Shown: positions 36,391-51,934, counted from the stretch's first letter. The stretch is 64,000 nucleotides of DNA from Ignavibacteria bacterium (GCA_026416955.1 JAOAEE010000036.1:24455-88454); one strand, 5' to 3'. Notes: generated by a model not told the origin, from the sequence alone. Made by a program: numbers and translations.

Positions 36391-36417
36391 GTAACCAAAT
36401 TAAATGATGATTTGTCT
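36391..36417 (+). promoter_or_regulatory. Candidate ECF-type autoregulatory promoter (AAC-containing -35, GTCT -10)
   Basis: GTAACC at 36391-36396, an 17-18 nt spacer, then GTCT at 36414-36417. Lies in the 40-nt gap before the ECF sigma gene. The geometry fits the AAGGAG SD at 36433. Confidence 0.25.
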
Positions 36418-36442
36418 TTGTATTTGAGTGCGAAGGAGTAAT

Positions 36443-37009
36443 GTGAAAAATTTTGGCGAAAAAAAAGTAGAGGAAGAGAAACTTATTCGGGCAACCGAGG
36501 ATTTTCGTCGGGGAAGTGCCGAGGCATTTCATATTTTGTATTCGCACTATAGCCAAAAAGTGTATAGGTTTTGTTTAAGAATGCTGGGAAGTAAAGAAAA
36601 AGCAGAAGATGCCTTTCAAGAAACTTTCATCAAGGTATTTGAAAATGCAAAAAGTTTTCGGAGTGATAATTTTGGTCCTTGGCTATTTACAATTGCACGC
36701 CACGTTTGTTTGAATATGATAAGATTGGAGAAACCATACCAAGAAGTTAACGACAACTCTTTGAAATTATCATATGTTAATAATAGCGACTTTGGGTTGA
36801 AGGATTTTGTTCAACGCGCAATTATGCAATTACCGATTAGTTTGCGCGAAGCCTTGTTGTTGAGAGAATACGAGGAATATTCTTACGAGGAGATAGCCCG
36901 AATTCTGGATATTGGCATTTCCCTGGCAAAAATTCGAGTTCATCGTGCTAGACTTCTCTTAAAAAAATTATTGGAACCAATTGCAAAGGAATATTATGGG
37001 AATCGATAA
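36443..37009 (+). CDS. ECF-family RNA polymerase sigma factor
   Basis: Region 2 (YRFCLRMLGSKEKAEDAFQETFIKVF) and region 4 (LREALLLREYEEYSYEEIARIL). GTG at 36443 lies 4 nt after AAGGAG. The longest ORF starts at 36428. Confidence 0.88.
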   Translation: MKNFGEKKVEEEKLIRATEDFRRGSAEAFHILYSHYSQKVYRFCLRMLGSKEKAEDAFQETFIKVFENAKSFRSDNFGPWLFTIARHVCLNMIRLEKPYQEVNDNSLKLSYVNNSDFGLKDFVQRAIMQLPISLREALLLREYEEYSYEEIARILDIGISLAKIRVHRARLLLKKLLEPIAKEYYGNR

Positions 37010-38354
37010 GTTCATTAATGATTATCTTGATGGTACGCTTACTCCCGAAGATGATAACAAGTTTCGGGAATTGCTCGAAAATGATATAGAAGCCCAAGAG
37101 GAATTCGATTTGATGTTGTCGCTCAATTCGATACTTAAAAATGATGCCGAAAGTATCCAAGTTCCCAAAAGTTTAGAAGAGAAGGTCGAGCAAAGATTAC
37201 TTGCTACCTATTTGAGTATGGTAGCAACCAAACCAAGTCGAAAAGGAAGAAAAATTGCTTTTGCGCTTGCTTCGTTCTTTTTCCTATTCTTAATTAGTAT
37301 TTATTATATAAATGAGGGAAATTTACCTCACAACAACACATATTTTATTTCGGAAATTGTTAAACAGCAAGATATATTGAACCAACAAATCCCAATTGCG
37401 GAAGAGCAATCAATGCCAAATGATAGTAAAATTAATCCTGCTTATTCCCTTGCCCTTTCTAATCTGTCGAACCAATCAGCTACCAAGACAGAAATTTCAG
37501 CAATTAGTCGATACGAAGGAGTATCGAAAAATGAACTTTTCCAACATAATGTTGTTACGATATCGAAGGGATTGTTTGTAGAAGATGGTTTCAAATACGA
37601 CAGTAAAGTAGAAAAAGATAGAAATTTGGTTTTTCTACCAAAGGAAAAGGGAAATGTTTTGAGTATACATTCTGCTCAACTTTCTTTGGATTATCAAAAT
37701 GTTAACAAATTTGGATATCATCCAAATTATTTTAACGACTTACCAGCAAAAGGAATTTCGTTAACTGCATTCTCTTCTTTACCTTTAAGGGAATATGGAT
37801 ACAATCCTCAAAATTTGAAGTCATATTCAAGTTTTTCTCAAAGTGTTGGTTATCAAATTTCCGACAACTTTCGTTTGGGGTTAGAATTCGGTTATTTTGA
37901 CTTCGATTACACCCAAAACACAACAATCCTTGTTCCAGCAATACAACCCTATGCACCAGAAAGAAAAATTTATGATAAATATATCAAAAAAGAAAAGAAT
38001 GAAACAGTTGTTCTAACAAACGGAGAAGATAATTCCTATCCAAAATATGTAGAAGTAACTGTACCTATCGATAGAAAATATCAACATTATTGGGGTAGCC
38101 TATTTGTCGATTATGAATACCCATTAAATAAATTTCTATCGATAGTAGGTCGTATGAATGTTGGAGCAACAAGCGATGGATTTCTTGGAGGCGTTGTAGT
38201 TTATACAGAATTCCAACCCTTTAATGGCTTAACCTTAAACTTTGGATTAGAGAATAAAACTTATTGGAGCGCATTCCCTTCGGAAACATCTACTTTGAAA
38301 AGCGTGGTTGGTTTGGTTTATGGTTTAAGTTTGAAATTTAATCTTGGGAAATAA
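36996..38354 (+). CDS. Anti-sigma factor: N-terminal anti-sigma domain, one TM, C-terminal beta-barrel-like domain
   Basis: FINDYLDGTLTPEDDNKFRELLE. TM IAFALASFFFLFLISIYYI. The C-terminal ~170 aa has an alternating strand pattern (LGLEFGYFDFDY...GLVYGLSLKFNL). Overlaps the sigma gene by 14 nt. Confidence 0.65.
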   Translation: MGIDKFINDYLDGTLTPEDDNKFRELLENDIEAQEEFDLMLSLNSILKNDAESIQVPKSLEEKVEQRLLATYLSMVATKPSRKGRKIAFALASFFFLFLISIYYINEGNLPHNNTYFISEIVKQQDILNQQIPIAEEQSMPNDSKINPAYSLALSNLSNQSATKTEISAISRYEGVSKNELFQHNVVTISKGLFVEDGFKYDSKVEKDRNLVFLPKEKGNVLSIHSAQLSLDYQNVNKFGYHPNYFNDLPAKGISLTAFSSLPLREYGYNPQNLKSYSSFSQSVGYQISDNFRLGLEFGYFDFDYTQNTTILVPAIQPYAPERKIYDKYIKKEKNETVVLTNGEDNSYPKYVEVTVPIDRKYQHYWGSLFVDYEYPLNKFLSIVGRMNVGATSDGFLGGVVVYTEFQPFNGLTLNFGLENKTYWSAFPSETSTLKSVVGLVYGLSLKFNLGK

Positions 38355-38436
38355 TGTTTAATGTTTGAATTTTGCTAAAAATAAATTAATTTTGCTTGAT
38401 TTATGTGGATATTATTAAACAAAAAGAGGTGTTATT

Positions 38437-40368
38437 ATGAGAAAGTCTTTACACATTCTCATTATTTTATTTTTCTTAGCACAAAATCCTGCAATTTTTG
38501 CTATCGAGCAAATTAATACTACGATTGCCTCGCCCAAAAGTTTCAAAGGGGTGGAGTTAGTTCCGGAAATACCTAATTATTTCTTTAAGTCGCCAGTAGA
38601 TAAGCCACTGTCAACAATAAACTTCCAAATCTTGGACTCCTTAGCAAATGCATATTCATATTTTAGCGAGTCTCAGCAACCGTTTGTATACGTTCCCAAA
38701 ATTAGACAACTTATAACTATCAAAAGGGGATACTGGGATATTGACAAGTATCCAGAATATACTGGCGACGACACGAAGAATAATCTTTTTATTAGATATT
38801 CTACGGATTGGGGCAAAAGTTGGTCGAATCCAATACTTGTCTACAAAGTACCAAGTGGGACACAATATGCAACTTGGCGTGCCCGTTACCCAAGTGTTTA
38901 TGCTTTCGATTACGAGGGAGATATTGCTTATGTTTACACTGCACCTTGTACAGATGGAAGTGGCTGGGTTGGTTTTGTAAATGGGTTATACTATCAAAAT
39001 AATTTCTTTCAATCGTTTTCAAAGTCTTTTACTTGGAAAGATGGAAATAGATATAACTGGGGCGGCACAGATTCTCGTATTGTTGGGGGAATGGACGGAA
39101 GCGACCCCTATGCAATTGCTGTTGGAACAATAATGATTGAAGGAGGCTTACCACTTACACATACGAGCCATTTAGGTTACCGACGTACAACAGATTTCGA
39201 TAAATGGAACGAAGTTATACCTCCTCAATGGGAAGCAAGTAAGTATAAAACTCCTGTTTCACAAAATGATAGTGTAAGGTCCTCTTTGATTGCTGGTTTC
39301 AAATTTGCCGATGATGGTTATATTTATATGGCAGCCTATGCAAATTTTGCAAACCTCACTTTAAATAGATTTTTCTTTGGTGTTTCTAAATCCACTGACC
39401 TTGGAAAAACTTGGAGCGATTTCGAATTCCCACCCGAGAATTTATTCGACTCATATTTACAGGAATATGGTCTAAATACTTCGTTGATTACCTGGGGGCA
39501 ACCACAATTTGTTCCATTGGGAAACGATAACTACACATTTCTTGTAAATATTAATGAAGATACTACCCAAACTTTCCGTCTTTGGGAAAATGCTCTTCAT
39601 CAACTGGTTGAAGTTTATAAACAAAATGGTGTTTGGGGTGTTCGAAAGGTCTCCGATTTGACTGGTTATGTTCTTGCTTATGTTGCACCAACTTCTTCAA
39701 ATCAACTTGGAGACGAAGCACAACTTGTTCGAACAGTTGATGGTTTAGCTCTTGTTGCAAAGTGGACTGATTTCGTTGATGTTGTGGTTAACGATACAGT
39801 TTATCCACGAGCAACGAACGATATTTTCGTTTCTGTGAGACGAATCAATAGCCCCGGGTGGTCGAAAGTCAAAAATATCACTGAAAGCTTTGATTATGAC
39901 AGAATTACTTGGTTGCCCGATATGGTTCCAAGTAATCTAAGAGATATTCCAATTTTGAAACTTGCTTCTATTCCAATAGAAGGTCAAACCGCGGCAGAAG
40001 CTCGACTTCGACAACGAATGCTCGATACTGTTCCACAATACCTTTTGGTTGGTTTCTTCGATGCAGATGATGTTTTGAATGTTGAAGAAGAAATCTATCA
40101 AAATCCAGAGATTACAAACCTTAAAGTTTACCCGAACCCTATGAGCGAAATTGGCTCTATTGAATTTGTTACAAGTTCACCCATACGTTTGACTATAGAT
40201 TTATACGATGTTTTTGGGAAAAAAGTTATGAATATTTTCGATGGGAATACTTTTGCTGGGGTTCAAGGAGTTACGTTCAAGACAAATAACCTTGCATCTG
40301 GCGTTTACAATGTTGTTGTAGAGTATAATGGTATTAAAAAAGTAATGCAGATAAATATACTGAAGTAA
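38437..40368 (+). CDS. Secreted BNR/Asp-box repeat protein (sialidase-like beta-propeller) with a T9SS C-terminal sorting domain
   Basis: Asp-boxes STDWGKSW and STDLGKTW. CTD KVYPNPMSEIGSIEF...GVYNVVVEYNGIKKVMQINILK. GAGGTG SD. Confidence 0.7.
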   Translation: MRKSLHILIILFFLAQNPAIFAIEQINTTIASPKSFKGVELVPEIPNYFFKSPVDKPLSTINFQILDSLANAYSYFSESQQPFVYVPKIRQLITIKRGYWDIDKYPEYTGDDTKNNLFIRYSTDWGKSWSNPILVYKVPSGTQYATWRARYPSVYAFDYEGDIAYVYTAPCTDGSGWVGFVNGLYYQNNFFQSFSKSFTWKDGNRYNWGGTDSRIVGGMDGSDPYAIAVGTIMIEGGLPLTHTSHLGYRRTTDFDKWNEVIPPQWEASKYKTPVSQNDSVRSSLIAGFKFADDGYIYMAAYANFANLTLNRFFFGVSKSTDLGKTWSDFEFPPENLFDSYLQEYGLNTSLITWGQPQFVPLGNDNYTFLVNINEDTTQTFRLWENALHQLVEVYKQNGVWGVRKVSDLTGYVLAYVAPTSSNQLGDEAQLVRTVDGLALVAKWTDFVDVVVNDTVYPRATNDIFVSVRRINSPGWSKVKNITESFDYDRITWLPDMVPSNLRDIPILKLASIPIEGQTAAEARLRQRMLDTVPQYLLVGFFDADDVLNVEEEIYQNPEITNLKVYPNPMSEIGSIEFVTSSPIRLTIDLYDVFGKKVMNIFDGNTFAGVQGVTFKTNNLASGVYNVVVEYNGIKKVMQINILK

Positions 40369-40388
40369 AACAAATAGAAAGGGAAAAT

Positions 40389-43300
40389 ATGAGGAAGACA
40401 TTATCCTACTTATTGTTGCTATGTATTAGTGTTTTGCTTCCTATATCGTTGGAAGCAAGCAATTATGGTACCCTTAAAGGTAAAGTTGTCGACCAAGACG
40501 GGAACCCAGTTGTGGGTGCTTCCGTTCGTATTCTTGGAACTCGTCTTGGTGGTGTTGTCAAAGCCGATGGTAAATTTATCGTTGTAAGTATACCAGCGGG
40601 AACATACAAAGTTCGTATCACTGCCGTTGGATATGCACCTTTTGAAGCAGAAGTTAGAATTTCTGCCGACGATGAGACCGAAATTAATGTTAGACTTAAA
40701 GAAGAAGGCAAGGTGACAGAAGAGGTTGTCGTTGTTGGGGAAAAACTTGTTTCGCACAAGGACATTGGCGTCAAGCGTCAATTTGAAAACCAACAACTTA
40801 CATCTATTGCTCGCGAGGGTTTGCAAGCAATAATAGGATTAAGTGCTGGCGTTTTCAATGCTGGAGGTGGTTGGATAATACGTGGGAGCCGAACCAACGA
40901 AAGCCAGATAAGGATTGATGGTATAGACGTTAGCGACAAGTTCACTGGTGGCTTTGGAATTGTTGGAGCTACTTATTATCCGATGGTAAGTGCATTTGCA
41001 ACCGAAGAAGTACAAGTTTTGACTGGTGGCTTTTCTGCCGAATATGGTAACGTTTTGGGTGGTTTTGTTAATACTACTTTGAAGACTGGTAGAACCGACC
41101 GATACGAAGGATATATTCGTTGGAGAACAGATATTCCTGCCTTGTTTGGTCGCCAACCTCACGATTTGAAACTCATTCGCGAAGGCGACCGATATAAAGC
41201 AATCGATTGGGGAGAAGGCAGAAAATTGCAAGGTACCAAAGAGCATACTTTTGAATTTGGTATTGGTGGACCAATACCTTTATGGGATAAAGCCACTTTC
41301 TTCATTGCTGGGAATTACTTTTACGAAAAATATCGTTCTGCAAGTTACGATATTTACGACCCAGTTCATATCAACAACTTAGGCAAGGTAGACCAAAATA
41401 ATCTTGGGCAGATTCCCAACAATCAATCTTGGAAGAAAAGCGTACAAGCGAAATTGAAGTTCCCAATCACACAAGATATCGATTTAATTCTATTTGGGAA
41501 CTTTGGGATGACTAACCTTGAAACTCTCGATTGGTCTTGGCTCTATGCTATCGAACCCGGTTCAATACCCGGATTGCCTTCTTATGGTGTAGAAGAAAGA
41601 AAAGCCAAGTCCCCTGTTTATAATCAATTTGCAAAGAGTGGGTACGTTCAGATTCAACATAGATTAGGTTCAAATAGTTTTTACGAGATAAAAATTTCGA
41701 ATACATCGAACAATAGCGATGCTTCGCGAAGGAAAACGTTCGACGACCCCAATTTCTTTACTGGATTTGAAGTATGGTACCCACAAGATGATTTTGCAGT
41801 AACAATTGGTAATTTGGAGCCCGGAAAAGATAAAATATTAGACCAATACACACCTGTTACCCAAATTAAGAATTCAAAGGATGGCTTTATCAAAATGGAT
41901 ATGCCTATTGTTAACCCACTTACTGGTTACATCGAAGGAAGTTCCAGTACTCAACACGCACAAAATGCCTATGGTTTGACTGGAATTTTCGATTTACACG
42001 GTAATGAAAGGACATTTGAATTTCGACGAAGCAATTATTGGCAAGTTGATGGAAATTACACACTTGCTGTTGAAGGTGAGTTCAGTCATATGTTCAAAAC
42101 TGGTTTCGAAGTTCAATTCTATCAACTTCGCCGACATATGAATAGTTTGCCTTGGGATGCCAATCCTTTCTTTGATGTTTACACAGACGAGTGGGGTGGT
42201 AATCTTTATGCCGACAATAAAAGTGTTTATGATAAAACAAGTAAACCATATAAACCTATCACAGGTGGATTATATATACAAGACCAAATTACCTACAAGG
42301 GCTTGATTATTACTCCCGGTTTGCGTTTTGATTTCTATATCCCTAATTCAGATTATCGTACCGTGGTAGAATATTTTGTTCCAATTACTTCGGACACAGG
42401 CTTTGCAAAAGCAACTACCAAAACACAAATCAGCCCGAGAATAAATGTAACTTATCCAATTACCGACCGTTCCAATATATCGATTTCCTACGGTGTTCTG
42501 TTCCAAATGCCACCAATGCAATATCTTTACGATGCTTTTGCTGTCGACCAATTGCGCGGCAACTCAATTCTTGGAAACCCCAATATGAAACCACAAAAAT
42601 CGAATATGTATCAAGTAACTTACAACAATCAACTTACTGATGATTTTGCTCTTGATATAGCTGCTTATTACAAGGACAATTATAACCAAGTTGGTTTGGT
42701 TTATGTTGCTGCTGTCCCCACTCCATATTATATGTATACAGTTTCGGAATATGGAAGTGCTCGAGGTATTGAATTTACCTTAAGAAAACGGCCAACTAAC
42801 CATATACAATTAAACCTAAATTACAATTTATCCTATGCTACAACAACTGGTTCATCCCCTGGGTCGAACTATTTGGTAGCAGTTGACCCATTCACTGGGA
42901 AACAGGCCTTCCCATTGGCTGAATTCCCCTTTTCTGCCGACAGAACCCACAGAGTGAATGCAATCATCGACTTTATTTGGGGTTACAAGCAAGGACCTTC
43001 CATTGCGGGTATTTATCCCTTGGAAAATACAGTTATAAATTTGACAGGTTTCTTCCAAACTGGAACTCCATATACAAGATTGGATAGGGCGGGAAATGCA
43101 ATCGGAGAGTTTAATGCCGAAAGGCAACCTTCGATTTGGAATGCTAATATGAGGATTCAAAAAGGATTTTTCTTGCGTGATTGGTTTGGCGACCAAGCTG
43201 GTAATTCTCGGTTGGAGTTCTTTATTGATGTAAACAATATTTTCAATCTTACAAGTGTTGCCGGCGTGTTTGCTCGAACTGGAGACCCAATTGATGACGG

Positions 43301-43571
43301 AGTAAACTTCTATCGTCCAGAAACTGATTTCAGCGCTGTAGTTTATTATCGAGAAGCTGATTATGCCCGTGCTGAATCATTTTCTACCGACCAGTATACA
43401 ATCTACGGAGATAGATTTTATAATATTAATGCCGATTTCGATAGAAATGGTATGGTTACACGAACAGAAAAATTCCAAGCCTTTACAAAGTATTTGGAAG
43501 ATGTTCGTAGGTTCCGGGGGAACTTCCTTGCTCCTCGAACTGTTTACGCTGGTATAATGTTTAGGTTTTAA
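40389..43571 (+). CDS. Large TonB-dependent-receptor-like outer-membrane barrel with a CarboxypepD_reg domain (1060 aa)
   Basis: GTLKGKVVDQDGNPVVGASVRI...AGTYKVRITAVGY. Plug-like IIRGSRTNESQIRIDGIDV. C-terminal GIMFRF. Confidence 0.8.
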   Translation: MRKTLSYLLLLCISVLLPISLEASNYGTLKGKVVDQDGNPVVGASVRILGTRLGGVVKADGKFIVVSIPAGTYKVRITAVGYAPFEAEVRISADDETEINVRLKEEGKVTEEVVVVGEKLVSHKDIGVKRQFENQQLTSIAREGLQAIIGLSAGVFNAGGGWIIRGSRTNESQIRIDGIDVSDKFTGGFGIVGATYYPMVSAFATEEVQVLTGGFSAEYGNVLGGFVNTTLKTGRTDRYEGYIRWRTDIPALFGRQPHDLKLIREGDRYKAIDWGEGRKLQGTKEHTFEFGIGGPIPLWDKATFFIAGNYFYEKYRSASYDIYDPVHINNLGKVDQNNLGQIPNNQSWKKSVQAKLKFPITQDIDLILFGNFGMTNLETLDWSWLYAIEPGSIPGLPSYGVEERKAKSPVYNQFAKSGYVQIQHRLGSNSFYEIKISNTSNNSDASRRKTFDDPNFFTGFEVWYPQDDFAVTIGNLEPGKDKILDQYTPVTQIKNSKDGFIKMDMPIVNPLTGYIEGSSSTQHAQNAYGLTGIFDLHGNERTFEFRRSNYWQVDGNYTLAVEGEFSHMFKTGFEVQFYQLRRHMNSLPWDANPFFDVYTDEWGGNLYADNKSVYDKTSKPYKPITGGLYIQDQITYKGLIITPGLRFDFYIPNSDYRTVVEYFVPITSDTGFAKATTKTQISPRINVTYPITDRSNISISYGVLFQMPPMQYLYDAFAVDQLRGNSILGNPNMKPQKSNMYQVTYNNQLTDDFALDIAAYYKDNYNQVGLVYVAAVPTPYYMYTVSEYGSARGIEFTLRKRPTNHIQLNLNYNLSYATTTGSSPGSNYLVAVDPFTGKQAFPLAEFPFSADRTHRVNAIIDFIWGYKQGPSIAGIYPLENTVINLTGFFQTGTPYTRLDRAGNAIGEFNAERQPSIWNANMRIQKGFFLRDWFGDQAGNSRLEFFIDVNNIFNLTSVAGVFARTGDPIDDGVNFYRPETDFSAVVYYREADYARAESFSTDQYTIYGDRFYNINADFDRNGMVTRTEKFQAFTKYLEDVRRFRGNFLAPRTVYAGIMFRF

Positions 43572-43603
43572 TTCGAAAATGTGTAATAATATTGGGTGAA
43601 TAT

Positions 43604-46600
43604 ATGAAAAGAATGAAACTAGGACTTTTTACATTGGTAGCGCTAATTGCTTGTACTACGTTGGTTTTTTCGCTACCAAAAGATTATGAAAAAAGCAAAA
43701 AAAGCGGCGATGAACCGCAAAGAACCTACACACAACTTTTCGACCTTCAACAAAATAGCGTTAGCAATATTCAATTTTACACCACCAACTATGGAATTTT
43801 TGGTTTAAATGTTGCTCAAAATCGTGGTGGTGGATACTGGCCTCGTGGGTCGAACAATCAGTATATTTTTGGTGGGGGCCTTTGGGTTGGTGCGATCAAA
43901 CCCAGACCCGATGGTAAACCCAAAAAATATGTCGAGGTTACTTACAACCCAAATAATGGTCGTTCTTGGATGGTTCCGGGCCGCATTACTGATGGCGACA
44001 GCAAAGATGTGTCCGACATTAAAAAGTATCGAACTTATTTCTCGACTGATTTCCGTAAAGGTGATGGTACACCTTTAAATGCTGACCACGGACCCAGTTG
44101 GCCCATTTGGGATACAAGCCCAAATGATACTTTGAAATATAATCGTTACTATGGTTATTACGTTGATGATGTAAACCAAAGAAATACTACAGCTTTTCCA
44201 AAAGGTCCTGCCTTTATTTCTGGCGAGGATATATTCTGCACATATAAAGATACTGATGTAAACGAATTCGATGGCGGGGCTGGGCTGCGAAAGAGCCAAG
44301 GATATCCACTTCGCCTTCAGTTCGAGCAAATGATTTATTCTTGGGGCTTTGGCGATTACAAAGATTTTATCTTTATCAAATACGATGTTATTAATTTCAG
44401 CAAGGATACACTTCGAGAAGTTTGGCTTGGTTCGGTGATGGATATCGATATCGCACGAGCACCCAACCTTGTTAACGGTGCACGAAACGATAGAGCCAGA
44501 TTTTACGAAGAAGATACTACTTTGAACCTTGGTGTTCAATGGACAAATACAGACCAAGGCGAAAAAGGCTTTGGATTCGGATATTTAGGGTTCGACTTTT
44601 TGGAGAGCCCCGCCGTTGTTAAATCGGAAAGAAGTGTTGTAACATATGAACTGCAAGGTGCTGATACTTTATTCCGTATTGTTGAATATATGTGCTACGA
44701 TAAAAAATTCTTTAAAATTGAAATTAGAGATTCAGTAGGAAATGTTATTGGTTACAAAGATTCAGTTGCTTGTTTGAAGGAGGAAGTTGTAAAAAGATGG
44801 ACTTCATTGCATAGGAAGACCGACACGGGAATTGTTGTTATCAATAACATTGAATATGATATTACTGGTTTTATTCGAAAGGATAGAAGAGTTTTCGAAA
44901 CAAGTGAACAACTTGGGTTGAAAACATTCCGTAATTGGCATATTGATGATGATAAAAATGATGACGACGAACGATACAATTTTATGTCTTCTGGTATTCG
45001 CGATGGCGACTTTGGACCTGGCGACCGACGGTTGATGATGGCAACTGGTCCGTTCAATATGGCTCCCGGAGATACTGCTCGTTTGGTTGTTGCTTTAATT
45101 TGCGCTCAAACAGCAGTGCGAGAAGATGCTGACGGAAGCACGGAAGACCTTGCAGAAATGATACGCAAAGATAAATTTGCTCAACAAGTTTACGACGACA
45201 ATTTCCGTGCTCCTTCGCCACCGGAGCGAGCCAATTTTGTTACTTGGACACCTTTGCACAATGGCTTTATTCTCAAATGGGATAGTACCGCCGAAATTTC
45301 GAAGGACTTTTACGAAAAAGGTATGGATTTCCTTGGATATAAACTTTATCGTGCCAGAAGAACCGACCTCGACACTTTCGATATCGACAATATCTCTCCA
45401 AGTTTGCAATATCCTTCTGGAAAAGGACCATTTGGATGGAAACAAATTGCTCAATGGGAACTTCCAACCCCATTCTACAAGTCTGTTTATAGAGCGGGTG
45501 GGAGCAATCTTACAACAATGCCTTTTATTGATTCATTGAGAATTGTTGGTCCATACCTTGAAAATCGAGGGGGACAAATAGTTATCGATTCGTTTGCTAT
45601 ACGAGTTTTGCGTGTGGGTCGGGGTATTAAACTTAATCCAACCAATCGATGGGTAATTCAAAATATTACCCAATCCAGTGGTAACATTTTCCCAGTGATT
45701 TGCGGAGTTGATACTGCTTATTTCTCCAAGCCTTGGGGTCCGTTCTGGCAATCAAAAATTAATATGGCTGCAAGAGAACTTCCAATTTATTACGACCCGT
45801 TCAACGCAATTAATCCAAGAAGACATTATCTACTTGATAGTGTGATGCTTGGAGTAGTTAAGTTGAACCGCTTGTTCCTTACCTATAACCCACTACTTTG
45901 GAGAAAGGAAACAATCAATGTTAATCCAAGCGATACTGCGACCTTGCCAGAAAGAACCGGACCAAATCTTGATACGATATACTTGAAGAAAACTTACCGT
46001 CGTGCAGTAGTAAATGGAACAAGTGTTCTTTTGATAGACCGAATGGTGCCAATGAATATCCAAATGGTTTTGCGCGATTCTTTGCATATACAACAAGCAT
46101 TGGACTCAATTTATAAATATATTCAACAAGGATTGGCAAAGGTCGAATTTCCAAACTTTGAACAATCGGACGAGGCGCTAAATAAAGTTGTCGTTCCATA
46201 TATGGACAGTATTACCAACCACAGGACATTTATCGACTTAGGGGACGACAATAAAGATATGATTGTAAGTTACAACGATAACCCCACTAAGACAGAAAAG
46301 ATAATTAACAATGTAGATTATTACTATAGACTACTTTCCTACGACGAAGGAGATTATATACAACAAACACCACAAAAATTGAATGATGCTTCTCCCGGAT
46401 TACCAAATATGCTTAATGTCTTTGCTCGTTCTGCCCCTGTTGGAAAACCAATTGAATTCAAAGTAACCTATGTAGATACTGCAAGAATTGGTGGTTTGTA
46501 TAACTTCAAACTATTTGCTGTTGACTACGACCGAGCTGTCCAACTTTTTGCTGGACACGAGCTTGAGTTGGAATTCAATCCATATTGGGAACTTGAACAA

Positions 46601-48259
46601 ATTACACTTCCAGGTAGGTCTACACCCTTGCGTTTTGGAATGTATTGGCGTAGAATGACTTTGAAAGATTTAACTACAAATACTTTGCTTTTCAATTCAC
46701 TAACTTTACTCGAAGAAAGCCCCGGAATGCTTAGATATTCCGGCTCCCCAACAGAAAATGCTGCCTCGTACATCTTTAGCGATACTGCAATTGTCGATAC
46801 AATAACAGGGAAACGAAATGAATTTGGTCTACCTTTCAACAATGGTGTAATTACACGCTCTGGGAAAATTACAACTGGGGACTTTACAATTCCAGGATAC
46901 TATTACAGTTGGGGCTTTATGACGAACTACCCAAGTCCGGGTCCTGCATTTGGTGTTCTAGGATTCAGTTTCGACTATACAATACAACAGTACGGTGGAA
47001 TTCTTCGACCAGATTCATCTTCAATTCGTATGGAACCCGACAAGACACCAATCAATATTATAACAGACCCATCGAAAATCTTTACAACACAACAAGTCGA
47101 CTTTATGACGCTCCGACAAGAATTCCTCGGTTACACAGCCGATAGGCAACCTGTTTACCAGGGTTACGGACAACCGATTTATGGTAGTTTCAATAATGGT
47201 CCCGGAGATTTCGAAGTTACATTTATGCCTGGTGGAGAAGAGACAATGGAATTGGTATGGGGTCCCGCTGGCGATAGAAAGAGAAAAACATTTAAAGTTA
47301 AATACCTTACATTAAAAGTTCGTAATCTTCTGACTTACAAGCGTCCTTCTGAAAATGGTAAAGACTCTGTTGTAGTCTCTTATCCTCTTGAACTAGAACA
47401 TATGGTGATTGACACCATCCCCGGAGTAAATCAATATCCGGTTCCGACCAATTTGCGTTCGAGAAATAATGAGTTTATAAATAAGTTCAATCTAAGTGCC
47501 TATGGTTGGGTTAACGGAAGAAGAAATAATTCTGCAATCAAGATGCGCGAGCAGCAAGCCAACCCAGCTTGGAATACTGGATTAAGTTCGTTCAGCACTT
47601 ATATTGGCACACAAGGGCGATATTACTTGTCCGCTGTTAGCGAAGATGGCAAGGATACTGTTGATTTCACCCACGTGTTAATAATTGGAGGCTGCCAGTT
47701 TGCTTTGGATTATGCAAACAAAGGTAGAAGATTTGGAAATGCTGAATGGGAATATATTCCTACCAATCAATACCAATATGGGCAAGACTTCAAAGAAGGC
47801 GACAAAATCGTTTTGAAAATCCGTGGTGGTGCATTTGGATTACCTTTGCCTGGTGCGAAAGTTCGATTTAAAATTTCCGACTTCAAACCTGAGAACGAAA
47901 ACTATACCGACGAAATGCTCGAAAAGTTCAAGGTTGTTCCAAATCCATACTATATTTCACACCAAGGGCAAAAAACGCCCTACGATGCAAAGATTTACTT
48001 TACAAAGCTTCCACCGCGATGCACAATCGAGATTTATACACTTGCAGGAGATTTAGTGCGAACGATTGAGCACAACGAAACAAGTGCAGATGGTCCAGAC
48101 AAAAACTCTGTCGAAATTTGGGACTTGCTTTCGAAGAACGGTTTAAGAGTTACTAGCCAAACATTCGTTGCGGTTTTGAAGACCCCAAATGGAGCACAAG
48201 CAGTTCAAAAATTCTCTGTCGTTGTTGGTGGATTTAGGTTAATTCAAAGTCAACAATAA
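43604..48259 (+). CDS. Giant secreted protein of unknown function (1551 aa) with a divergent T9SS/FlgD-Ig-like C-terminal domain
   Basis: ATG at 43604 gives the signal peptide MKRMKLGLFTLVALIACTTLVFS. FN3-like FRAPSPPERANF...WDSTAE...FLGYKLYRA. C-terminus VVPNPYY...IEIYTLAGDLVRTI...IWDLLSKNG. Confidence 0.8.
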   Translation: MKRMKLGLFTLVALIACTTLVFSLPKDYEKSKKSGDEPQRTYTQLFDLQQNSVSNIQFYTTNYGIFGLNVAQNRGGGYWPRGSNNQYIFGGGLWVGAIKPRPDGKPKKYVEVTYNPNNGRSWMVPGRITDGDSKDVSDIKKYRTYFSTDFRKGDGTPLNADHGPSWPIWDTSPNDTLKYNRYYGYYVDDVNQRNTTAFPKGPAFISGEDIFCTYKDTDVNEFDGGAGLRKSQGYPLRLQFEQMIYSWGFGDYKDFIFIKYDVINFSKDTLREVWLGSVMDIDIARAPNLVNGARNDRARFYEEDTTLNLGVQWTNTDQGEKGFGFGYLGFDFLESPAVVKSERSVVTYELQGADTLFRIVEYMCYDKKFFKIEIRDSVGNVIGYKDSVACLKEEVVKRWTSLHRKTDTGIVVINNIEYDITGFIRKDRRVFETSEQLGLKTFRNWHIDDDKNDDDERYNFMSSGIRDGDFGPGDRRLMMATGPFNMAPGDTARLVVALICAQTAVREDADGSTEDLAEMIRKDKFAQQVYDDNFRAPSPPERANFVTWTPLHNGFILKWDSTAEISKDFYEKGMDFLGYKLYRARRTDLDTFDIDNISPSLQYPSGKGPFGWKQIAQWELPTPFYKSVYRAGGSNLTTMPFIDSLRIVGPYLENRGGQIVIDSFAIRVLRVGRGIKLNPTNRWVIQNITQSSGNIFPVICGVDTAYFSKPWGPFWQSKINMAARELPIYYDPFNAINPRRHYLLDSVMLGVVKLNRLFLTYNPLLWRKETINVNPSDTATLPERTGPNLDTIYLKKTYRRAVVNGTSVLLIDRMVPMNIQMVLRDSLHIQQALDSIYKYIQQGLAKVEFPNFEQSDEALNKVVVPYMDSITNHRTFIDLGDDNKDMIVSYNDNPTKTEKIINNVDYYYRLLSYDEGDYIQQTPQKLNDASPGLPNMLNVFARSAPVGKPIEFKVTYVDTARIGGLYNFKLFAVDYDRAVQLFAGHELELEFNPYWELEQITLPGRSTPLRFGMYWRRMTLKDLTTNTLLFNSLTLLEESPGMLRYSGSPTENAASYIFSDTAIVDTITGKRNEFGLPFNNGVITRSGKITTGDFTIPGYYYSWGFMTNYPSPGPAFGVLGFSFDYTIQQYGGILRPDSSSIRMEPDKTPINIITDPSKIFTTQQVDFMTLRQEFLGYTADRQPVYQGYGQPIYGSFNNGPGDFEVTFMPGGEETMELVWGPAGDRKRKTFKVKYLTLKVRNLLTYKRPSENGKDSVVVSYPLELEHMVIDTIPGVNQYPVPTNLRSRNNEFINKFNLSAYGWVNGRRNNSAIKMREQQANPAWNTGLSSFSTYIGTQGRYYLSAVSEDGKDTVDFTHVLIIGGCQFALDYANKGRRFGNAEWEYIPTNQYQYGQDFKEGDKIVLKIRGGAFGLPLPGAKVRFKISDFKPENENYTDEMLEKFKVVPNPYYISHQGQKTPYDAKIYFTKLPPRCTIEIYTLAGDLVRTIEHNETSADGPDKNSVEIWDLLSKNGLRVTSQTFVAVLKTPNGAQAVQKFSVVVGGFRLIQSQQ

Positions 48260-48265
48260 ATTTTT

Positions 48266-48288
48266 GGTTCCCCCAATTTGGGGGAACC
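48266..48288 (+). other. Strong intercistronic hairpin between the giant gene and the PorV-like gene
   Basis: GGTTCCCCCA-att-TGGGGGAACC gives a 10-bp stem. Only TTT follows it, so it is not a canonical terminator. Confidence 0.5.
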
Positions 48289-48320
48289 TTTAACTATGTT
48301 GAAAAAAATGGAGTGAGAAA

Positions 48321-49358
48321 ATGAAAAAGATAATTTTGACAGTGGTTTTAATTGGTTTATTCGGGTACTTTGAAGTTTTTTCCATTGGGGGAGCAATTTC
48401 AGGTTCAACCACTGGCGAAACCTTTGTGAAGGTTGGTGCCGCTGGTTCACAATTTTTGAAAATCCCTATTGGTGCCCGAGCAAATGGGCTTGCTGGTGCT
48501 TATTCTTCTTTGTGTAGCGATTTAACCTCGATTTTTTGGAATCCAGCAGGTTTGGCAGATGTCAAATATATTTCTGCCGATTTTTCTTATACTCAATGGT
48601 TTGCTGGTTTCAAACATAGTTTTGGTGCTTTTGCTTTGCCAATTGGGCGTAATTTTACTTCTGCTATTTCTTTGGTAGCGTTAAATAGCGGGAATATCGA
48701 AATAACTACGCTCGAAAAGCCCAATGGAACAGGATTGAGCTATCAAGTTAACGATGTTGCAATCGCTTTCACTTTTTCGGGGTATTTGACAGACCAGTTT
48801 TCATTCGGTATCACTGCCAAGTATGTTAACAATATGATTTCTAACCTTTCGAGTAGTGGTATTGCCTTTGATGTTGGAACTATGTACGAGACTGGAATTC
48901 GTGGCATTCGGCTTGGATTTTCCATTCATAATCTTGGTGTGAAGCAAGCGTACAGTGGACAAGATTTAAATTCCTCGAGGAAATTGTACGAGGCATTGAA
49001 TGCTGCTCCATTGGATATTGCTTATATTGCCAGTAGCTATTCCCTACCGTTGATTTTCCGTGCGGGAATTTCTACAGAAGTCTGGAAAGCCGAAGACCAC
49101 CGAGTTGTTGCAGCTGCTGATTTTATTACTCTTTCCGATACCCCGGAACATTATGCACTAGGCGCTGAATATACTTTCAAGGATTTCTTATCGCTACGGG
49201 CTGGATATCAGTTTGGAACTGATATTTTCGGGCTTTCTGGCGGTGTTGGTTTGAAGTATTTCGCTGGTGGTTTCGAAGGTGAATTCGACTATTCATTGAC
49301 CCCAACTAAGAATATTGGTTTAGTGAATCGTTTGAGTATTAAAGTTGCTGTTAAGTAG
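48321..49358 (+). CDS. PorV/PorQ-family outer-membrane beta-barrel protein
   Basis: Signal peptide. AGSQFLKIPIGARANGLAGAYSSLCSDLTSIFWNPAGLA is the family N-terminal signature. GGAGTGAG SD. Confidence 0.75.
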   Translation: MKKIILTVVLIGLFGYFEVFSIGGAISGSTTGETFVKVGAAGSQFLKIPIGARANGLAGAYSSLCSDLTSIFWNPAGLADVKYISADFSYTQWFAGFKHSFGAFALPIGRNFTSAISLVALNSGNIEITTLEKPNGTGLSYQVNDVAIAFTFSGYLTDQFSFGITAKYVNNMISNLSSSGIAFDVGTMYETGIRGIRLGFSIHNLGVKQAYSGQDLNSSRKLYEALNAAPLDIAYIASSYSLPLIFRAGISTEVWKAEDHRVVAAADFITLSDTPEHYALGAEYTFKDFLSLRAGYQFGTDIFGLSGGVGLKYFAGGFEGEFDYSLTPTKNIGLVNRLSIKVAVK

Positions 49359-49418: not shown

Positions 49419-49449
49419 AGCAAGGGGTTGAACCCCTTGCTCTTTTTTT
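49419..49449 (+). terminator. Rho-independent terminator after the PorV-like gene
   Basis: AGCAAGGGG-ttgaa-CCCCTTGCT forms a 9-bp GC-rich stem followed by CTTTTTTT. Confidence 0.75.
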
Positions 49450-50959
49450 GGTACAAATTTTGTATTTTTCTTTTGTTTTTGTGACACTTTATATGGGAAT
49501 TTCTTATTTAGTAAATTTCAAACCATTATTTAAACTCGTTGGTTTTGTTGGTATTTTTTGGGTGATTTTTCTTTACGAATCCTATCCATATACAATACCG
49601 ATTTTTGTCGACTATTGTATTTTCAATCGAAACGAAAAGGAAAATGTCGTAGAAATTTACTATGGATTTTTGGATAATCAGTTATCTTACCATAAGCAAG
49701 GGAAAAAATTTGTTGCTGAATTATCTATGGAAATAAAATTTTTTGCCAATGACACTCTTTACGATTCATACAATTGGACAGTTTACTATGAAAAAGACAA
49801 AATTGATACCACCAACGAATTACAGAACTTATTGGTTGGTCAGAAAAATTTTGTAATCGATAAAAATTCCAAGATTAAGTTCCAACTTGATTGTTTTGAT
49901 ATTCGGGATTCATCAAATTATTATCGTAGGACATTCGAAGTTGAAAATCTCTTGTTCCCTCCGAATGAATGTTCGATAAGTGACATTCAATTTGCACAAT
50001 TTTTCGAGCACAGCGATACTACCAATTTTTTTTGGCAAAAAGAGTTTCTTAAAGGAAAATTTTATGTTATTCCAAATCCTACCCTTGAGGTTGTTGGAAC
50101 GAACCCTCGCCTTTATTCTTACTTTGAGTATTATTTAGGCTCTAATATTTCTATTAAACAAGTTAGAATTGAATATAGAATTTTCAACAATCTGAAAGAA
50201 GAAGTTTTATTTACTTTTAAGAATGCTAAAGTTGCTGGTAAATCCCAATTCGATATTAATGGTTTTGCGCTTGATGCTTTAAGTTCGGGGGTGTATTTCT
50301 TTGAGGTAACTTTATTGGATGCTAATGGCAAGTTTCTTACTCGCTCGAAGAAAAAGAAATTCTATTTATTGAATCCCGAGCTACCCCCAGAGCCTGTGCG
50401 TCGGTATACCGAACCAGAATTGTTCGAAAAAAGCATTTTTGCTACGTTGTCCGACAAAGAAGCCGATTTGGAGTTCGAAAAAGCTAAGTATATTGCTTCG
50501 GACTACGAGAAGGAATTGTTTAAAAGTTTAACAACAACAGAAGCAAAGCGCCGTTTCCTTTTTCAATTTTGGAGGCGTAGGAACCCCGATACTACTTTGA
50601 TATATAACCAAGCATACGAAAATTTTGTTCAGAAAGTAAATTATGCAAATAAATTCTTTTCGGTGGGCAATCAAGTAGAGGGGTGGAAAACCGATAGAGG
50701 AAGAGTATTAATTCAATATGGTGAACCAACTTCCCGAGAGTTCTACCCACGAGAACCAAATAAGCGTAGCTATGAAATTTGGTTCTATAGTGAATTGCAA
50801 GGTGGGGCGTTCTTTTATTTTGTCGACCTGGTTGGCAATGGTAATTTCATTCTTGTACACTCGACTGCAATGAATGAGATTTATAATGAAAATTGGTATA
50901 CCGATTTCGTAACTGGAACGAATTCCGAACGAATTCAAAAAATGTTTCTGAACAGATGA
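49448..50959 (+). CDS. GWxTD domain-containing protein. Start uncertain.
   Basis: Motif GWKTDRGRVLIQYGEP near the C-terminus. The TTG at 49448 lies in the terminator U-tract. The GTG at 49481 or ATG at 49493 are alternatives. Confidence 0.75.
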   Translation: MVQILYFSFVFVTLYMGISYLVNFKPLFKLVGFVGIFWVIFLYESYPYTIPIFVDYCIFNRNEKENVVEIYYGFLDNQLSYHKQGKKFVAELSMEIKFFANDTLYDSYNWTVYYEKDKIDTTNELQNLLVGQKNFVIDKNSKIKFQLDCFDIRDSSNYYRRTFEVENLLFPPNECSISDIQFAQFFEHSDTTNFFWQKEFLKGKFYVIPNPTLEVVGTNPRLYSYFEYYLGSNISIKQVRIEYRIFNNLKEEVLFTFKNAKVAGKSQFDINGFALDALSSGVYFFEVTLLDANGKFLTRSKKKKFYLLNPELPPEPVRRYTEPELFEKSIFATLSDKEADLEFEKAKYIASDYEKELFKSLTTTEAKRRFLFQFWRRRNPDTTLIYNQAYENFVQKVNYANKFFSVGNQVEGWKTDRGRVLIQYGEPTSREFYPREPNKRSYEIWFYSELQGGAFFYFVDLVGNGNFILVHSTAMNEIYNENWYTDFVTGTNSERIQKMFLNR

Positions 50960-51846
50960 AGCGTTTAAGGTTTTATCTTGAAACTTGTTTTGTTTACTTA
51001 ATAGGATGGTTTTCAAGTCTCTTTTCTCCTTCGAAAAGACTTACTTTTGGTAAAATCTTGGGTAGAATCTTATATTTTTTGCTTCCGCAAAGGGTCAAAA
51101 TTGCTCGCCAGAACTTGCTTTTTGCATATCCTACAAAAGACCCAAAATGGGTAAATGATATTACGAAAAAAGTTTTCGAGAATTTAGGTATTGTCTTTGC
51201 TGAATTTCTTGCACTTCCTTGGTTCGACGAGAATGTAATAAAAGATTATATACGATTCGAAAATGTCGAATTAATAAGGGAAAAATACAACGAAGGCAAA
51301 GGTGTACTTCTTCTTTCTGGTCATTACGGAAATTGGGAATTGCTTGCTTATTCAGTGAAAGTTTATCTGGGGCTGTCAGTATTAATCATAGTCAAACCCC
51401 TTTCGAATTATATTTTAGACAGAGTAATTAACCAATTTCGTACTCAAGGTGGTAACCAAGTTGTTTCGATGTACGAGTCTGCATTGAAAGTTGTAAGGAC
51501 ATTGAAAGAGAAAGGTATTGTGGCTTTGCTTGCAGACCAAAGTGCAACAAAAGATAAAGACATATATGTAAATTTTTTCGGGCGGAAAGCAGCAACTTTC
51601 GATTCGCCTGCTCATTTTGCACTAAAGTATAAAGTACCAGTTATCATTGGTTTTGCCAAAAGAGAAAGTTATTATTACAAAGTTAGATTAGAAGAAATAG
51701 ACCATTCCGATTTAAATTTCGATAAAGAAGGAATTTATGAATTGACAAGAAGATACATTGAAAAACTCGAAAATGTAATTAACGAAAAACCAGAACTTTG
51801 GCTTTGGACACACCGCCGTTGGAAACACAATCAAGAAAATTCTTAG
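50956..51846 (+). CDS. Lipid A biosynthesis (Kdo2-lipid IVA) acyltransferase, LpxL/HtrB family
   Basis: LLLSGHYGNWELLA (H-x4-E/D acyltransferase motif). Family-typical C-terminus PELWLWTHRRWK. ATGA start/stop overlap with the GWxTD gene. Confidence 0.85.
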   Translation: MKRLRFYLETCFVYLIGWFSSLFSPSKRLTFGKILGRILYFLLPQRVKIARQNLLFAYPTKDPKWVNDITKKVFENLGIVFAEFLALPWFDENVIKDYIRFENVELIREKYNEGKGVLLLSGHYGNWELLAYSVKVYLGLSVLIIVKPLSNYILDRVINQFRTQGGNQVVSMYESALKVVRTLKEKGIVALLADQSATKDKDIYVNFFGRKAATFDSPAHFALKYKVPVIIGFAKRESYYYKVRLEEIDHSDLNFDKEGIYELTRRYIEKLENVINEKPELWLWTHRRWKHNQENS

Positions 51847-51934
51847 CAAATGGTTCCCTCGCCTAAAATCCTTTTAGTTTTTTCAAATAATTAAAGAGTT
51901 AATTTATTATATTGTAATAATTTTGGAGAAAAAA

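Follow-up and report, generated by a model that had tools for sequence, protein, structure and literature searches.

The 64,000-nucleotide stretch of DNA analysed here (hereafter the window; Ignavibacteria bacterium, GCA_026416955.1 JAOAEE010000036.1:24455-88454) contains a set of four co-directional genes, numbered 1 to 4 from the upstream end, for a BNR/Asp-box protein, a TonB-type barrel, a very large protein (the giant protein) and a PorV/PorQ-type barrel. Our comparison of related loci reveals that the TonB-type barrel, the giant protein and the PorV/PorQ-type barrel (hereafter the trio) form an invariant core, to which gene 1 is a frequent accessory. We tentatively suggest, with a chance not far short of even, that the trio makes up a lineage-specific complex of the outer membrane or cell surface, in which T9SS (type IX secretion system) export of the giant protein, docking of its C-terminal domain (CTD) and TonB-coupled capture would be combined.

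The arrangement of the trio was analysed by a homologue scan using one genome per species, which found relatives in at least 202 genomes, nearly all of the named ones being Kapabacteria- or Ignavibacteria-type metagenome-assembled genomes (MAGs); the best 80 loci, which belong to such MAGs, were used. Neighbouring genes were counted by tblastn with the proteins of the window, only in loci with enough flanking sequence. In 66 of 66 loci, the gene directly upstream of the giant gene is that for the TonB-type barrel, and in 72 of 72 the gene directly downstream is that for the PorV/PorQ-type barrel; order and strand are the same in every such locus over an identity range of 36–91%, and the median gaps are 33 nt and 55 nt, respectively. 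Shorter subfamilies of the giant protein (1262–1374 aa) retain the trio order as well, followed by a gene for a GT9 heptosyltransferase. This recurring arrangement is far beyond chance, and the co-occurrence of the three genes that the initial annotation had anticipated is borne out down to about 36% identity.

More than 440 homologues of the giant protein were found, every one of them annotated as ‘hypothetical’, and the listed matches are 42–91% identical, mostly over the full length. The closest locus is that of ‘Candidatus Kapaibacterium sp. Ch6’ (CP058732.1), the giant protein of which shares 90% amino-acid identity with ours. A further homologue search, with a distant subfamily member of 1262 aa as the query, gave no match labelled as outside the Kapabacteria-type lineage, and no paralogue of the giant protein is present within the window. 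MAG contigs with this locus are often titled ‘uncultured Hyphomicrobiales’, ‘Desulfobulbaceae’, ‘Bradyrhizobiaceae’ or ‘Chloroflexota’ (among them loci L005, L008, L009, L014–L016, L038, L069 and L071), which probably reflects mislabelled taxonomy in public records.

In the window itself, calls of open reading frames (ORFs) and a check of the N-termini agree with the earlier description of four co-directional genes with signal peptides, separated by gaps of only 20, 32 and 61 nt (Table 1). A K/R-rich stretch and then a hydrophobic one open each of the four proteins, as in Sec signal peptides. The giant gene has an alternative start, a TTG at 43592, which would give a protein of 1555 aa. The G+C content is about 36%. 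The domain labels given earlier to genes 1, 2 and 4 also hold, as described below for each protein.

Sequence analysis of gene 2 indicates a TonB-dependent-transporter-like barrel with an Oar-type layout, namely a CarboxypepD_reg N-terminal extension, a Plug domain and a large barrel. The extension is matched by PF13620 (63.5 bits, above its cut-off) and by PF13715 (64.1 bits), and the Plug by PF07715 at residues 131–225 (29.5 bits against a cut-off of 23.9). In the barrel region, TIGR01785 matches residues 608–823 (E 2.4e-12), PF00593 is not matched at E <= 0.01 and the C-terminal residue is Phe; orthologues match either PF00593 (TonB_dep_Rec) or PF25183 (OMP_b-brl_4). The Plug is the best-conserved region of the protein, which argues for real TonB gating. 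This barrel is not of the SusC family and, as stated in the initial annotation, is not followed by a SusD-like lipoprotein: the SusC/RagA model TIGR04056 gives 63 bits against a cut-off of 368, on the N-terminal domain only, and the protein encoded downstream has neither a SusD domain nor a lipobox, which rejects a SusCD-type polysaccharide utilization locus (PUL). The locus resembles SusC/SusD systems in that a surface-partner gene follows about 30 nt after a large barrel with a CarboxypepD_reg extension and that a secreted BNR-type protein is encoded alongside. However, the partner here is a non-lipoprotein of 1551 aa that appears to be T9SS-targeted and, in contrast to the variable PULs, the locus is single-copy and fixed across the whole class.

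The layout of gene 2 raises the question whether it encodes an exporter, which like Oar would move the giant protein or the product of gene 1 across the outer membrane by TonB energy. One orthologue of gene 2 matches the barrel model PF25183, which we take to represent the Oar-type barrel family, and the barrel gene is located immediately upstream of the cargo gene in every locus. Oar, which is needed for secretion of the PopC protease in Myxococcus xanthus, shares with gene 2 both the domain layout (CarboxypepD_reg, Plug and a barrel, which in gene 2 is a putative 22-strand barrel) and the size of about 1060 aa, but this CarboxypepD_reg-before-plug layout is the commonest architecture of TonB-dependent transporters in Bacteroidetes (PMC6434023). 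Moreover, unlike the cargo of Oar, the giant protein and the gene 1 product carry T9SS CTDs of their own and have no need of a second export route, and passage of a folded, multi-domain protein of 170 kDa through a 22-strand barrel is implausible. We therefore consider an exporter function to be very unlikely.

The giant protein gave no match to Pfam or NCBIfam, neither as a whole nor in five pieces, and none in a profile search of PDB sequences. AlphaFold models were obtained for residues 1–1100 (predicted local distance difference test, pLDDT, of 80.7) and 1001–1551 (pLDDT 84.5). They are mostly β, with an N-terminal β-supersandwich (the head domain), an array of immunoglobulin (Ig)-like domains and a C-terminal CTD-like domain. 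Foldseek with both models returned no confident whole-domain match to an enzyme, only generic supersandwiches, Ig-like arrays and the CTD, in agreement with the earlier statement that no motif can be assigned. The giant protein is a Sec-exported, mostly β non-lipoprotein that belongs to no named family. A lipoprotein nature, suggested by the motif ‘LIAC’ in the protein of the window, is ruled out, as just 2 of 73 orthologues have anything like a lipobox. The initial annotation had named two outcomes that would speak against its proposal, namely a lack of synteny in related genomes and an ordinary PUL-like locus with a characterised enzyme and a known nutrient-uptake barrel. What we find is a syntenic trio, a giant protein with no enzyme match and a barrel outside the SusC family.

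Identity among giant proteins is about 45% over the full length across the class, and conservation is lower in the middle of the protein (0.50) than in the head domain and the CTD (0.69–0.75). About 30% of the columns in the head domain are invariant, although a variable long β-hairpin is inserted in it at residues ~341–420 (conservation 0.23 against 0.73 in the domain). No invariant Cys or His was found outside the CTD in alignments of 14 and 53 giant sequences, which excludes a Cys/His or Ser/His/Asp protease. By Foldseek, the only structures that the head domain resembles are N-terminal sandwich domains, those of GH94, GH116 and related enzymes and that of YidC-P1 (E ~2e-4; query TM-score, TMq, 0.16), whereas the catalytic domains of these enzymes are unmatched. 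An exhaustive search among 1.8 billion representative proteins gave 1202 relatives. The head (residues ~10–340 and ~420–540) recurs at 37–62% identity in many proteins of about 520–590 aa, some of them named ‘T9SS type A sorting domain-containing protein’, and a canonical Por_Secre_tail is present at the end of 9 of 10 sampled head-domain relatives (537–1076 aa). The recurrence of the head with canonical CTDs in small T9SS cargo proteins marks it as an extracellular module, and it represents a new, unnamed domain family that occurs in T9SS cargo proteins. In one related locus (L029, 5058–6434), a head-domain paralogue is inserted between gene 1 and the gene for the TonB-type barrel. Another member of this domain family is encoded at 8001–9755 of L081/L082. 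The genomic context of a small head-domain paralogue was uninformative.

Two comparisons identify a CTD-like domain at the end of the giant protein, as expected for the T9SS cargo that it had been suggested to be. Foldseek matched the last ~100 residues to the CTD of NucA bound in the T9SS translocon (8glk_D; prob 1.00, target TM-score, TMt, 0.69, root-mean-square deviation 3.6). In hhalign, a profile of 73 giant C-termini matched one built from 50 canonical CTDs (E 6.3e-5, prob 65%), and the 87 aligned columns run from ‘VVPNP’ to the final strand. The domain is divergent and contains two insertions, one of which sits between the strands equivalent to β5 and β6. An extra hairpin between β5 and β6 is present in the uncleaved CTDs of PorU and PorZ (PMC11285876). 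The CTD of the giant protein is as conserved as its head domain, while the CTD of gene 1, which serves as a control, is slightly less conserved than the body of its own protein. On the basis of this conservation and of the β5–β6 insertion, we infer that the CTD of the giant protein is retained, that is, uncleaved.

The protein encoded by gene 4, judged by its profile matches, is a PorV/PorQ-family (FadL-like) outer-membrane barrel that is nearer to PorQ than to PorV. It matches the NCBIfam PorV/PorQ model NF033709 (173 bits against a cut-off of 90) but stays below the equivalog cut-offs of PorQ (NF033711, 97 against 220), PorV (NF033710, 63 against 250) and PorV2 (NF052325, 62 against 325). 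Its sole relative among PDB sequences is PorV of F. johnsoniae (6h3i_F, E 1.3e-7). The initial annotation had pointed to SprB–SprF as an analogy, and this system of Flavobacterium likewise has a very large T9SS cargo beside a dedicated outer-membrane barrel gene. However, SprF is a barrel of the PorP/SprF family that serves type B CTDs, while gene 4 matches PorV/PorQ models only and no PorP/SprF or type B CTD model was matched, which rejects a SprB/SprF-type pair. The CTD here is type A-like, and conservation of the giant protein far exceeds that of SprB-type adhesins. The PorZ–PorQ and PorU–PorV pairs are closer, as each consists of a CTD protein and a PorV/PorQ-family barrel (PMC8545088).

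In Porphyromonas gingivalis, these pairs combine an Ig-like, uncleaved CTD with a 14-stranded barrel, to which gene 4 and the conserved CTD of the giant protein would correspond. This similarity could be taken further, with the giant protein as PorU, gene 1 as PorZ and gene 4 as PorV or PorQ of a lineage-specific counterpart of the T9SS attachment complex, which would process cargo or link it to lipopolysaccharide (LPS) with the anchor glycolipid supplied by the neighbouring LPS genes. The porU and porV genes are adjacent in Bacteroidota, and the order of the giant gene and the PorV/PorQ-family gene mirrors this adjacency. CTDs are present on both the giant protein and gene 1, as on PorU and PorZ, and that of the giant protein shares its high conservation and its β5–β6 insertion with their uncleaved CTDs (PMC11285876). 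Synteny with the LpxL and GT9 genes is also conserved, and PorU is among the weak Foldseek matches to the C-terminal model (6za2, E 2e-3). However, the prob of that match is only 0.2–0.3, and we found no match in sequence or fold to the catalytic domain of PorU or to the propellers of PorZ; the giant protein has neither a peptidase C25 domain by Pfam nor a double propeller of the PorZ type. The lack of an invariant Cys or His outside the CTD, and hence of a conserved Cys/His dyad, rules out PorU-type catalysis and thus a C25-type signal peptidase or sortase. Gene 1 is absent in about 15 loci, with one clade lacking it, and such a complex offers no role for the universally linked TonB-type barrel, which is an invariant third partner here and has no counterpart in the PorQ and PorV pairs. 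A terminator separates the module from the LPS genes, the evolutionary rates of which do not co-vary with those of the trio. Taken together, an attachment-complex counterpart appears unlikely, and CTD docking as in these pairs is the part of the comparison that we retain for the trio.

Rate covariation was estimated from pairwise evolutionary distances in 31 loci with all proteins, using partial correlations that control for the mean of the other proteins. The TonB-type barrel and the giant protein's middle part gave the highest value (partial r 0.64), followed by the two barrels (0.44), the TonB-type barrel and the N-domain of the giant protein (0.42), and the PorV/PorQ-type barrel and the middle of the giant protein (0.36). 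Values between members of the trio and the GWxTD, LpxL or sigma proteins ranged from -0.28 to 0.22. This pattern points weakly to functional coupling inside the trio and not with its neighbours.

It might be argued that the giant protein is simply an abundant structural surface protein, such as an S-layer (surface-layer)-like coat, an adhesin or a gliding adhesin, on a PorQ-like anchor, the TonB-type barrel being a mere neighbour or a second anchor. Its mostly β fold with many Ig-like domains fits this description, as do the Foldseek matches of the C-terminal model, which, although weak, are to the Ig-like arrays of adhesins, S-layer and grappling-hook proteins as well as PorU. A stable hairpin right after the gene, as seen here, is a typical mark of highly expressed structural genes. 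Precedents exist for a FadL-like barrel with a surface protein, for example Bt1926/Bt1927 and BamF/BamG (10.1101/2025.01.31.636011). In BamF–BamG, the loops of a 14-stranded barrel of the FadL family bind a large extracellular partner, and the paralogous Bt1785–Bt1786 pair lies in one putative operon; however, BamG is a lipoprotein rather than a CTD protein, the matches of gene 4 are to PorV/PorQ, a BamA gene is absent from the vicinity and the PDB sequence search with gene 4 did not return a BamF chain. The conservation of the giant protein, in full-length identity as well as in the invariant columns of the head, is unusually high for a coat or an adhesin, and both its strongest rate covariation and its invariant adjacency are with the TonB-type barrel. 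A purely structural role therefore seems improbable to us.

Our preferred reading, a capture complex formed by the trio, can be outlined as follows. The T9SS would carry the giant protein across the outer membrane by means of its CTD, and the uncleaved CTD would dock on the co-encoded PorQ-like, 14-stranded barrel and keep the protein at the surface. PorQ–PorZ and PorV–PorU of Porphyromonas, in which uncleaved CTD proteins sit on PorV/PorQ-family barrels (PorZ on PorQ, PorU on PorV; PMC8545088), serve as the model for this tethering, and FadL-like barrels that bind large surface partners are known from the Bacteroidetes β-barrel assembly machinery (BAM) complex (10.1101/2025.01.31.636011). Tethered in this way, the giant protein would lie beside or over the TonB-dependent barrel, where its carbohydrate-binding-like head could capture a bulky ligand and pass it to the barrel for TonB-energised import. 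The ligand would probably be a glycan or glycoconjugate, since the fold of the head resembles the carbohydrate-binding supersandwich of GH94 and GH116. The giant protein would thus stand in for the SusD-type lipoprotein that is missing from the locus, and the BNR-propeller/CTD protein of gene 1 might be an optional secreted accessory. In its fullest form, which we regard as possible though doubtful, the trio would be a class-wide, single-copy machine of an undescribed kind, in which an Oar-type barrel is permanently coupled to a 170-kDa, T9SS-delivered protein that is tethered non-covalently by its retained CTD to a PorQ-like barrel of its own, for capture and import independent of SusD and of lipoproteins.

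Several observations weigh against this reading. The CTD of the giant protein is not matched by Por_Secre_tail or TIGR04183, even with the last 131 aa alone at E <= 5, and its profile–profile probability is just the 65% given above. Rate covariation is confounded by shared phylogeny and protein length, and the physical contacts among the trio proteins are ones that we infer. Pointers to a ligand are not found at the locus, which has no Rfam element and no catalytic domain, while the TM-scores of the head in Foldseek are very low (0.16). A single-copy, universal locus that is fixed beside LPS genes across the class is untypical of PUL-like nutrient uptake. Gene 4 may be an extra, dedicated paralogue or the lineage's own PorQ/PorV orthologue; a second PorV/PorQ paralogue was not found in the 10-kb flanks of the 80 related loci. 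Finally, the conserved hairpin that follows the giant gene, in a few loci a full terminator, makes it less certain that the giant and barrel genes share one operon.

The types of parts in this locus are known, but their combination and its class-wide fixation are new, and neither the giant protein nor its head has a curated family. Literature on the T9SS of Kapabacteria, PorV2, GWxTD and complexes of TonB-dependent transporters with PorV yielded no description of the module. To our knowledge, nearly all understanding of TonB-dependent transporters in Bacteroidota comes from SusCD-type systems, in which a barrel is paired with a lipoprotein. Proteins anchored by way of the T9SS, for their part, are viewed as A-LPS-linked cargo or as parts of the attachment complex. 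The present locus joins the themes of TonB and of T9SS anchoring in one strictly conserved unit of a deep-branching, largely uncultured sister lineage. If the trio does form a complex, PorV/PorQ-type barrels can be general docking sites for functional surface machinery, so that CTD docking would extend from housekeeping parts of the T9SS to an effector system, and TonB-dependent uptake can couple to T9SS-delivered receptors. Two unnamed protein families are defined by the locus, the giant protein and its ~490-aa head domain, the latter of which would then be a new extracellular glycan-binding or enzymatic family. As the module is universal in the class, it is also a possible lineage marker and metaproteomic target.

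Gene 1 appears from its sequence to encode a BNR/Asp-box β-propeller-like accessory protein with a canonical T9SS type A CTD. The CTD is matched by Por_Secre_tail (PF18962, 32.6 bits against a cut-off of 27, E 1e-7) and by TIGR04183 (30.2 against 23), and two Asp-box motifs (SxDxGxxW) are present as STDWGKSW and STDLGKTW. The protein has no sequence relative in the PDB. By tblastn, 33 of 52 loci have gene 1 upstream of the giant gene; divergent orthologues, which match BNR_2 and Por_Secre_tail, were missed by tblastn in a few more. The four-gene module of the initial annotation thus stands as far as the trio is concerned, which is always together, whereas gene 1 is optional.

Table 1. Coordinates of the genes, protein domains and putative signals of the locus, counted from the first nucleotide of the window.
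Feature	Coordinates	Strand	Remarks
ECF-type promoter motif GTAAC-N18-GTCT	36391..36417	+	upstream of sigma gene
ECF sigma-70 family factor	36428..37009	+	Sigma70_r2, r4_2; TIGR02937 81.6 bits against cut-off of 42.9
Anti-sigma-like membrane protein	36981..38354	+	weak NCBIfam anti-sigma match
TAATTTTG	38387..38394	+	matches TAnnTTTG; TTTG at 38364 and 38371; likely the module's own promoter
Gene 1	38437-40368	+	643 aa
Gene 2	40389-43571	+	1060 aa
Gene 3 (giant)	43604-48259	+	1551 aa counted from ATG
Giant N-terminal (head) domain	43721..45208	+	aa ~40-535, ~490 aa; β-supersandwich (galactose-mutarotase-like)
Giant CTD	47924..48238	+	aa ~1441-1545; divergent T9SS type A-like, two insertions
Stem-loop GGTTCCCCCA-ATT-TGGGGGAACC	48266..48288	+	10-bp G+C-rich stem, directly 3' of giant stop codon, no U-tract
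Gene 4	48321-49358	+	345 aa
Intrinsic terminator	49419..49451	+	10-bp stem, 6 G-C pairs, T-run; closes module
GWxTD-domain protein and LpxL-type lipid A acyltransferase	49448..51846	+	conserved downstream neighbours

A pair of genes for an extracytoplasmic function (ECF) sigma factor and an anti-sigma-like protein lies upstream of the module, and control of the module by this pair had been suggested. Analysis of promoter motifs does not favour such control. In 42 of 55 loci, GTAAC-N17-19-GTyT stands upstream of the sigma gene, which implies autoregulation, and elsewhere it occurs at background frequency; before the module, it was seen upstream of the gene for the TonB-type barrel in 1 locus and never upstream of gene 1. 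In 37 of 50 loci, the motif TAnnTTTG, which is the -7 element of the Bacteroidetes housekeeping sigma factor (sigma-A), is located in the intergenic region before gene 1, or before gene 2 in loci without gene 1. The sigma factor gene is found upstream of the giant gene in 46–47 of 52 loci, and the pair is missing at this position in some clades. Since TAnnTTTG stands before the module, the ECF motif is confined to the sigma gene and some clades lack the pair, the module probably has its own housekeeping-type promoter, with ECF control at most by read-through. Expression would then come mainly from this promoter, to which the ECF pair may add read-through under envelope stress. No riboswitch or other Rfam family was found between 34000 and 52000.

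The anti-sigma-like protein has a zf-HC2-like N-terminus, one transmembrane helix, a variable linker and a conserved, β-rich C-terminal domain of ~190 aa, which has no match in Pfam or the PDB; zf-HC2 was matched in 5 of 13 orthologues. The orthologues end in ..YGxQFxF, resembling the β-signal of outer-membrane proteins, and an anti-sigma protein that reaches the outer membrane would be unusual.

The terminator that follows gene 4 (49419–49441, or to 49451 as in Table 1) is the sole strong one on the + strand within 36.4–49.5 kb, as noted earlier, and a hairpin with a T-run is present 3' of the PorV/PorQ-type gene in most of the related loci shown. In quite divergent genomes (among them loci L006, L008, L013, L018, L022–L025, L039 and L047), the stem at this position is near-identical, ATTGCCGTTG...CAACGGCAAT, while the stem of the window differs. 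A second stem-loop, directly after the giant gene and not mentioned in the initial annotation, has a dG of -20.9 kcal/mol. A strong hairpin (dG <= -8) occurs at the same position in 45 of 68 loci, with T-runs after a few; the sequences vary among loci, so that structure and not sequence is conserved. The hairpin possibly acts as a leaky terminator, a stabiliser of the mRNA 3'-end or a processing site, and probably attenuates or stabilises the transcript; it would probably set the amount of the barrel relative to the giant protein. Because of this conserved hairpin between the giant and barrel genes, equal co-expression is not assured. The single four-gene unit of the initial annotation agrees with the tight spacing and the closing terminator, but the hairpin lies between the giant and barrel genes.

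Downstream of the giant gene, the GWxTD protein is encoded in 55 of 61 loci and LpxL in 53 of 59. Together with the GT9 gene, these two make up a downstream transcription unit that is conserved but distinct from the module. Across loci, the median overlap between the GWxTD and LpxL genes is 4 nt, suggestive of translational coupling. As listed, the GWxTD ORF (49448–50959) starts with a TTG that overlaps the T-run of the preceding terminator, and the true start is therefore probably farther downstream. After LpxL, the window encodes a Por_Secre_tail protein of 493 aa (51923–53404), at the place taken by the GT9 heptosyltransferase in other loci.

Two further genes of the window lie on the - strand, away from the module. 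One (7569–10232) encodes an 887-aa fusion of a patatin-like phospholipase, POTRA and an Omp85 barrel, which is PlpD-like (type Vd secretion). The other (62021–63901), located in the part of the window with the lowest G+C (0.31), encodes an N6-adenine methyltransferase of the Eco57I/MmeI type; this protein also has a TaqI-like specificity domain and is probably a type IIG restriction-modification enzyme.

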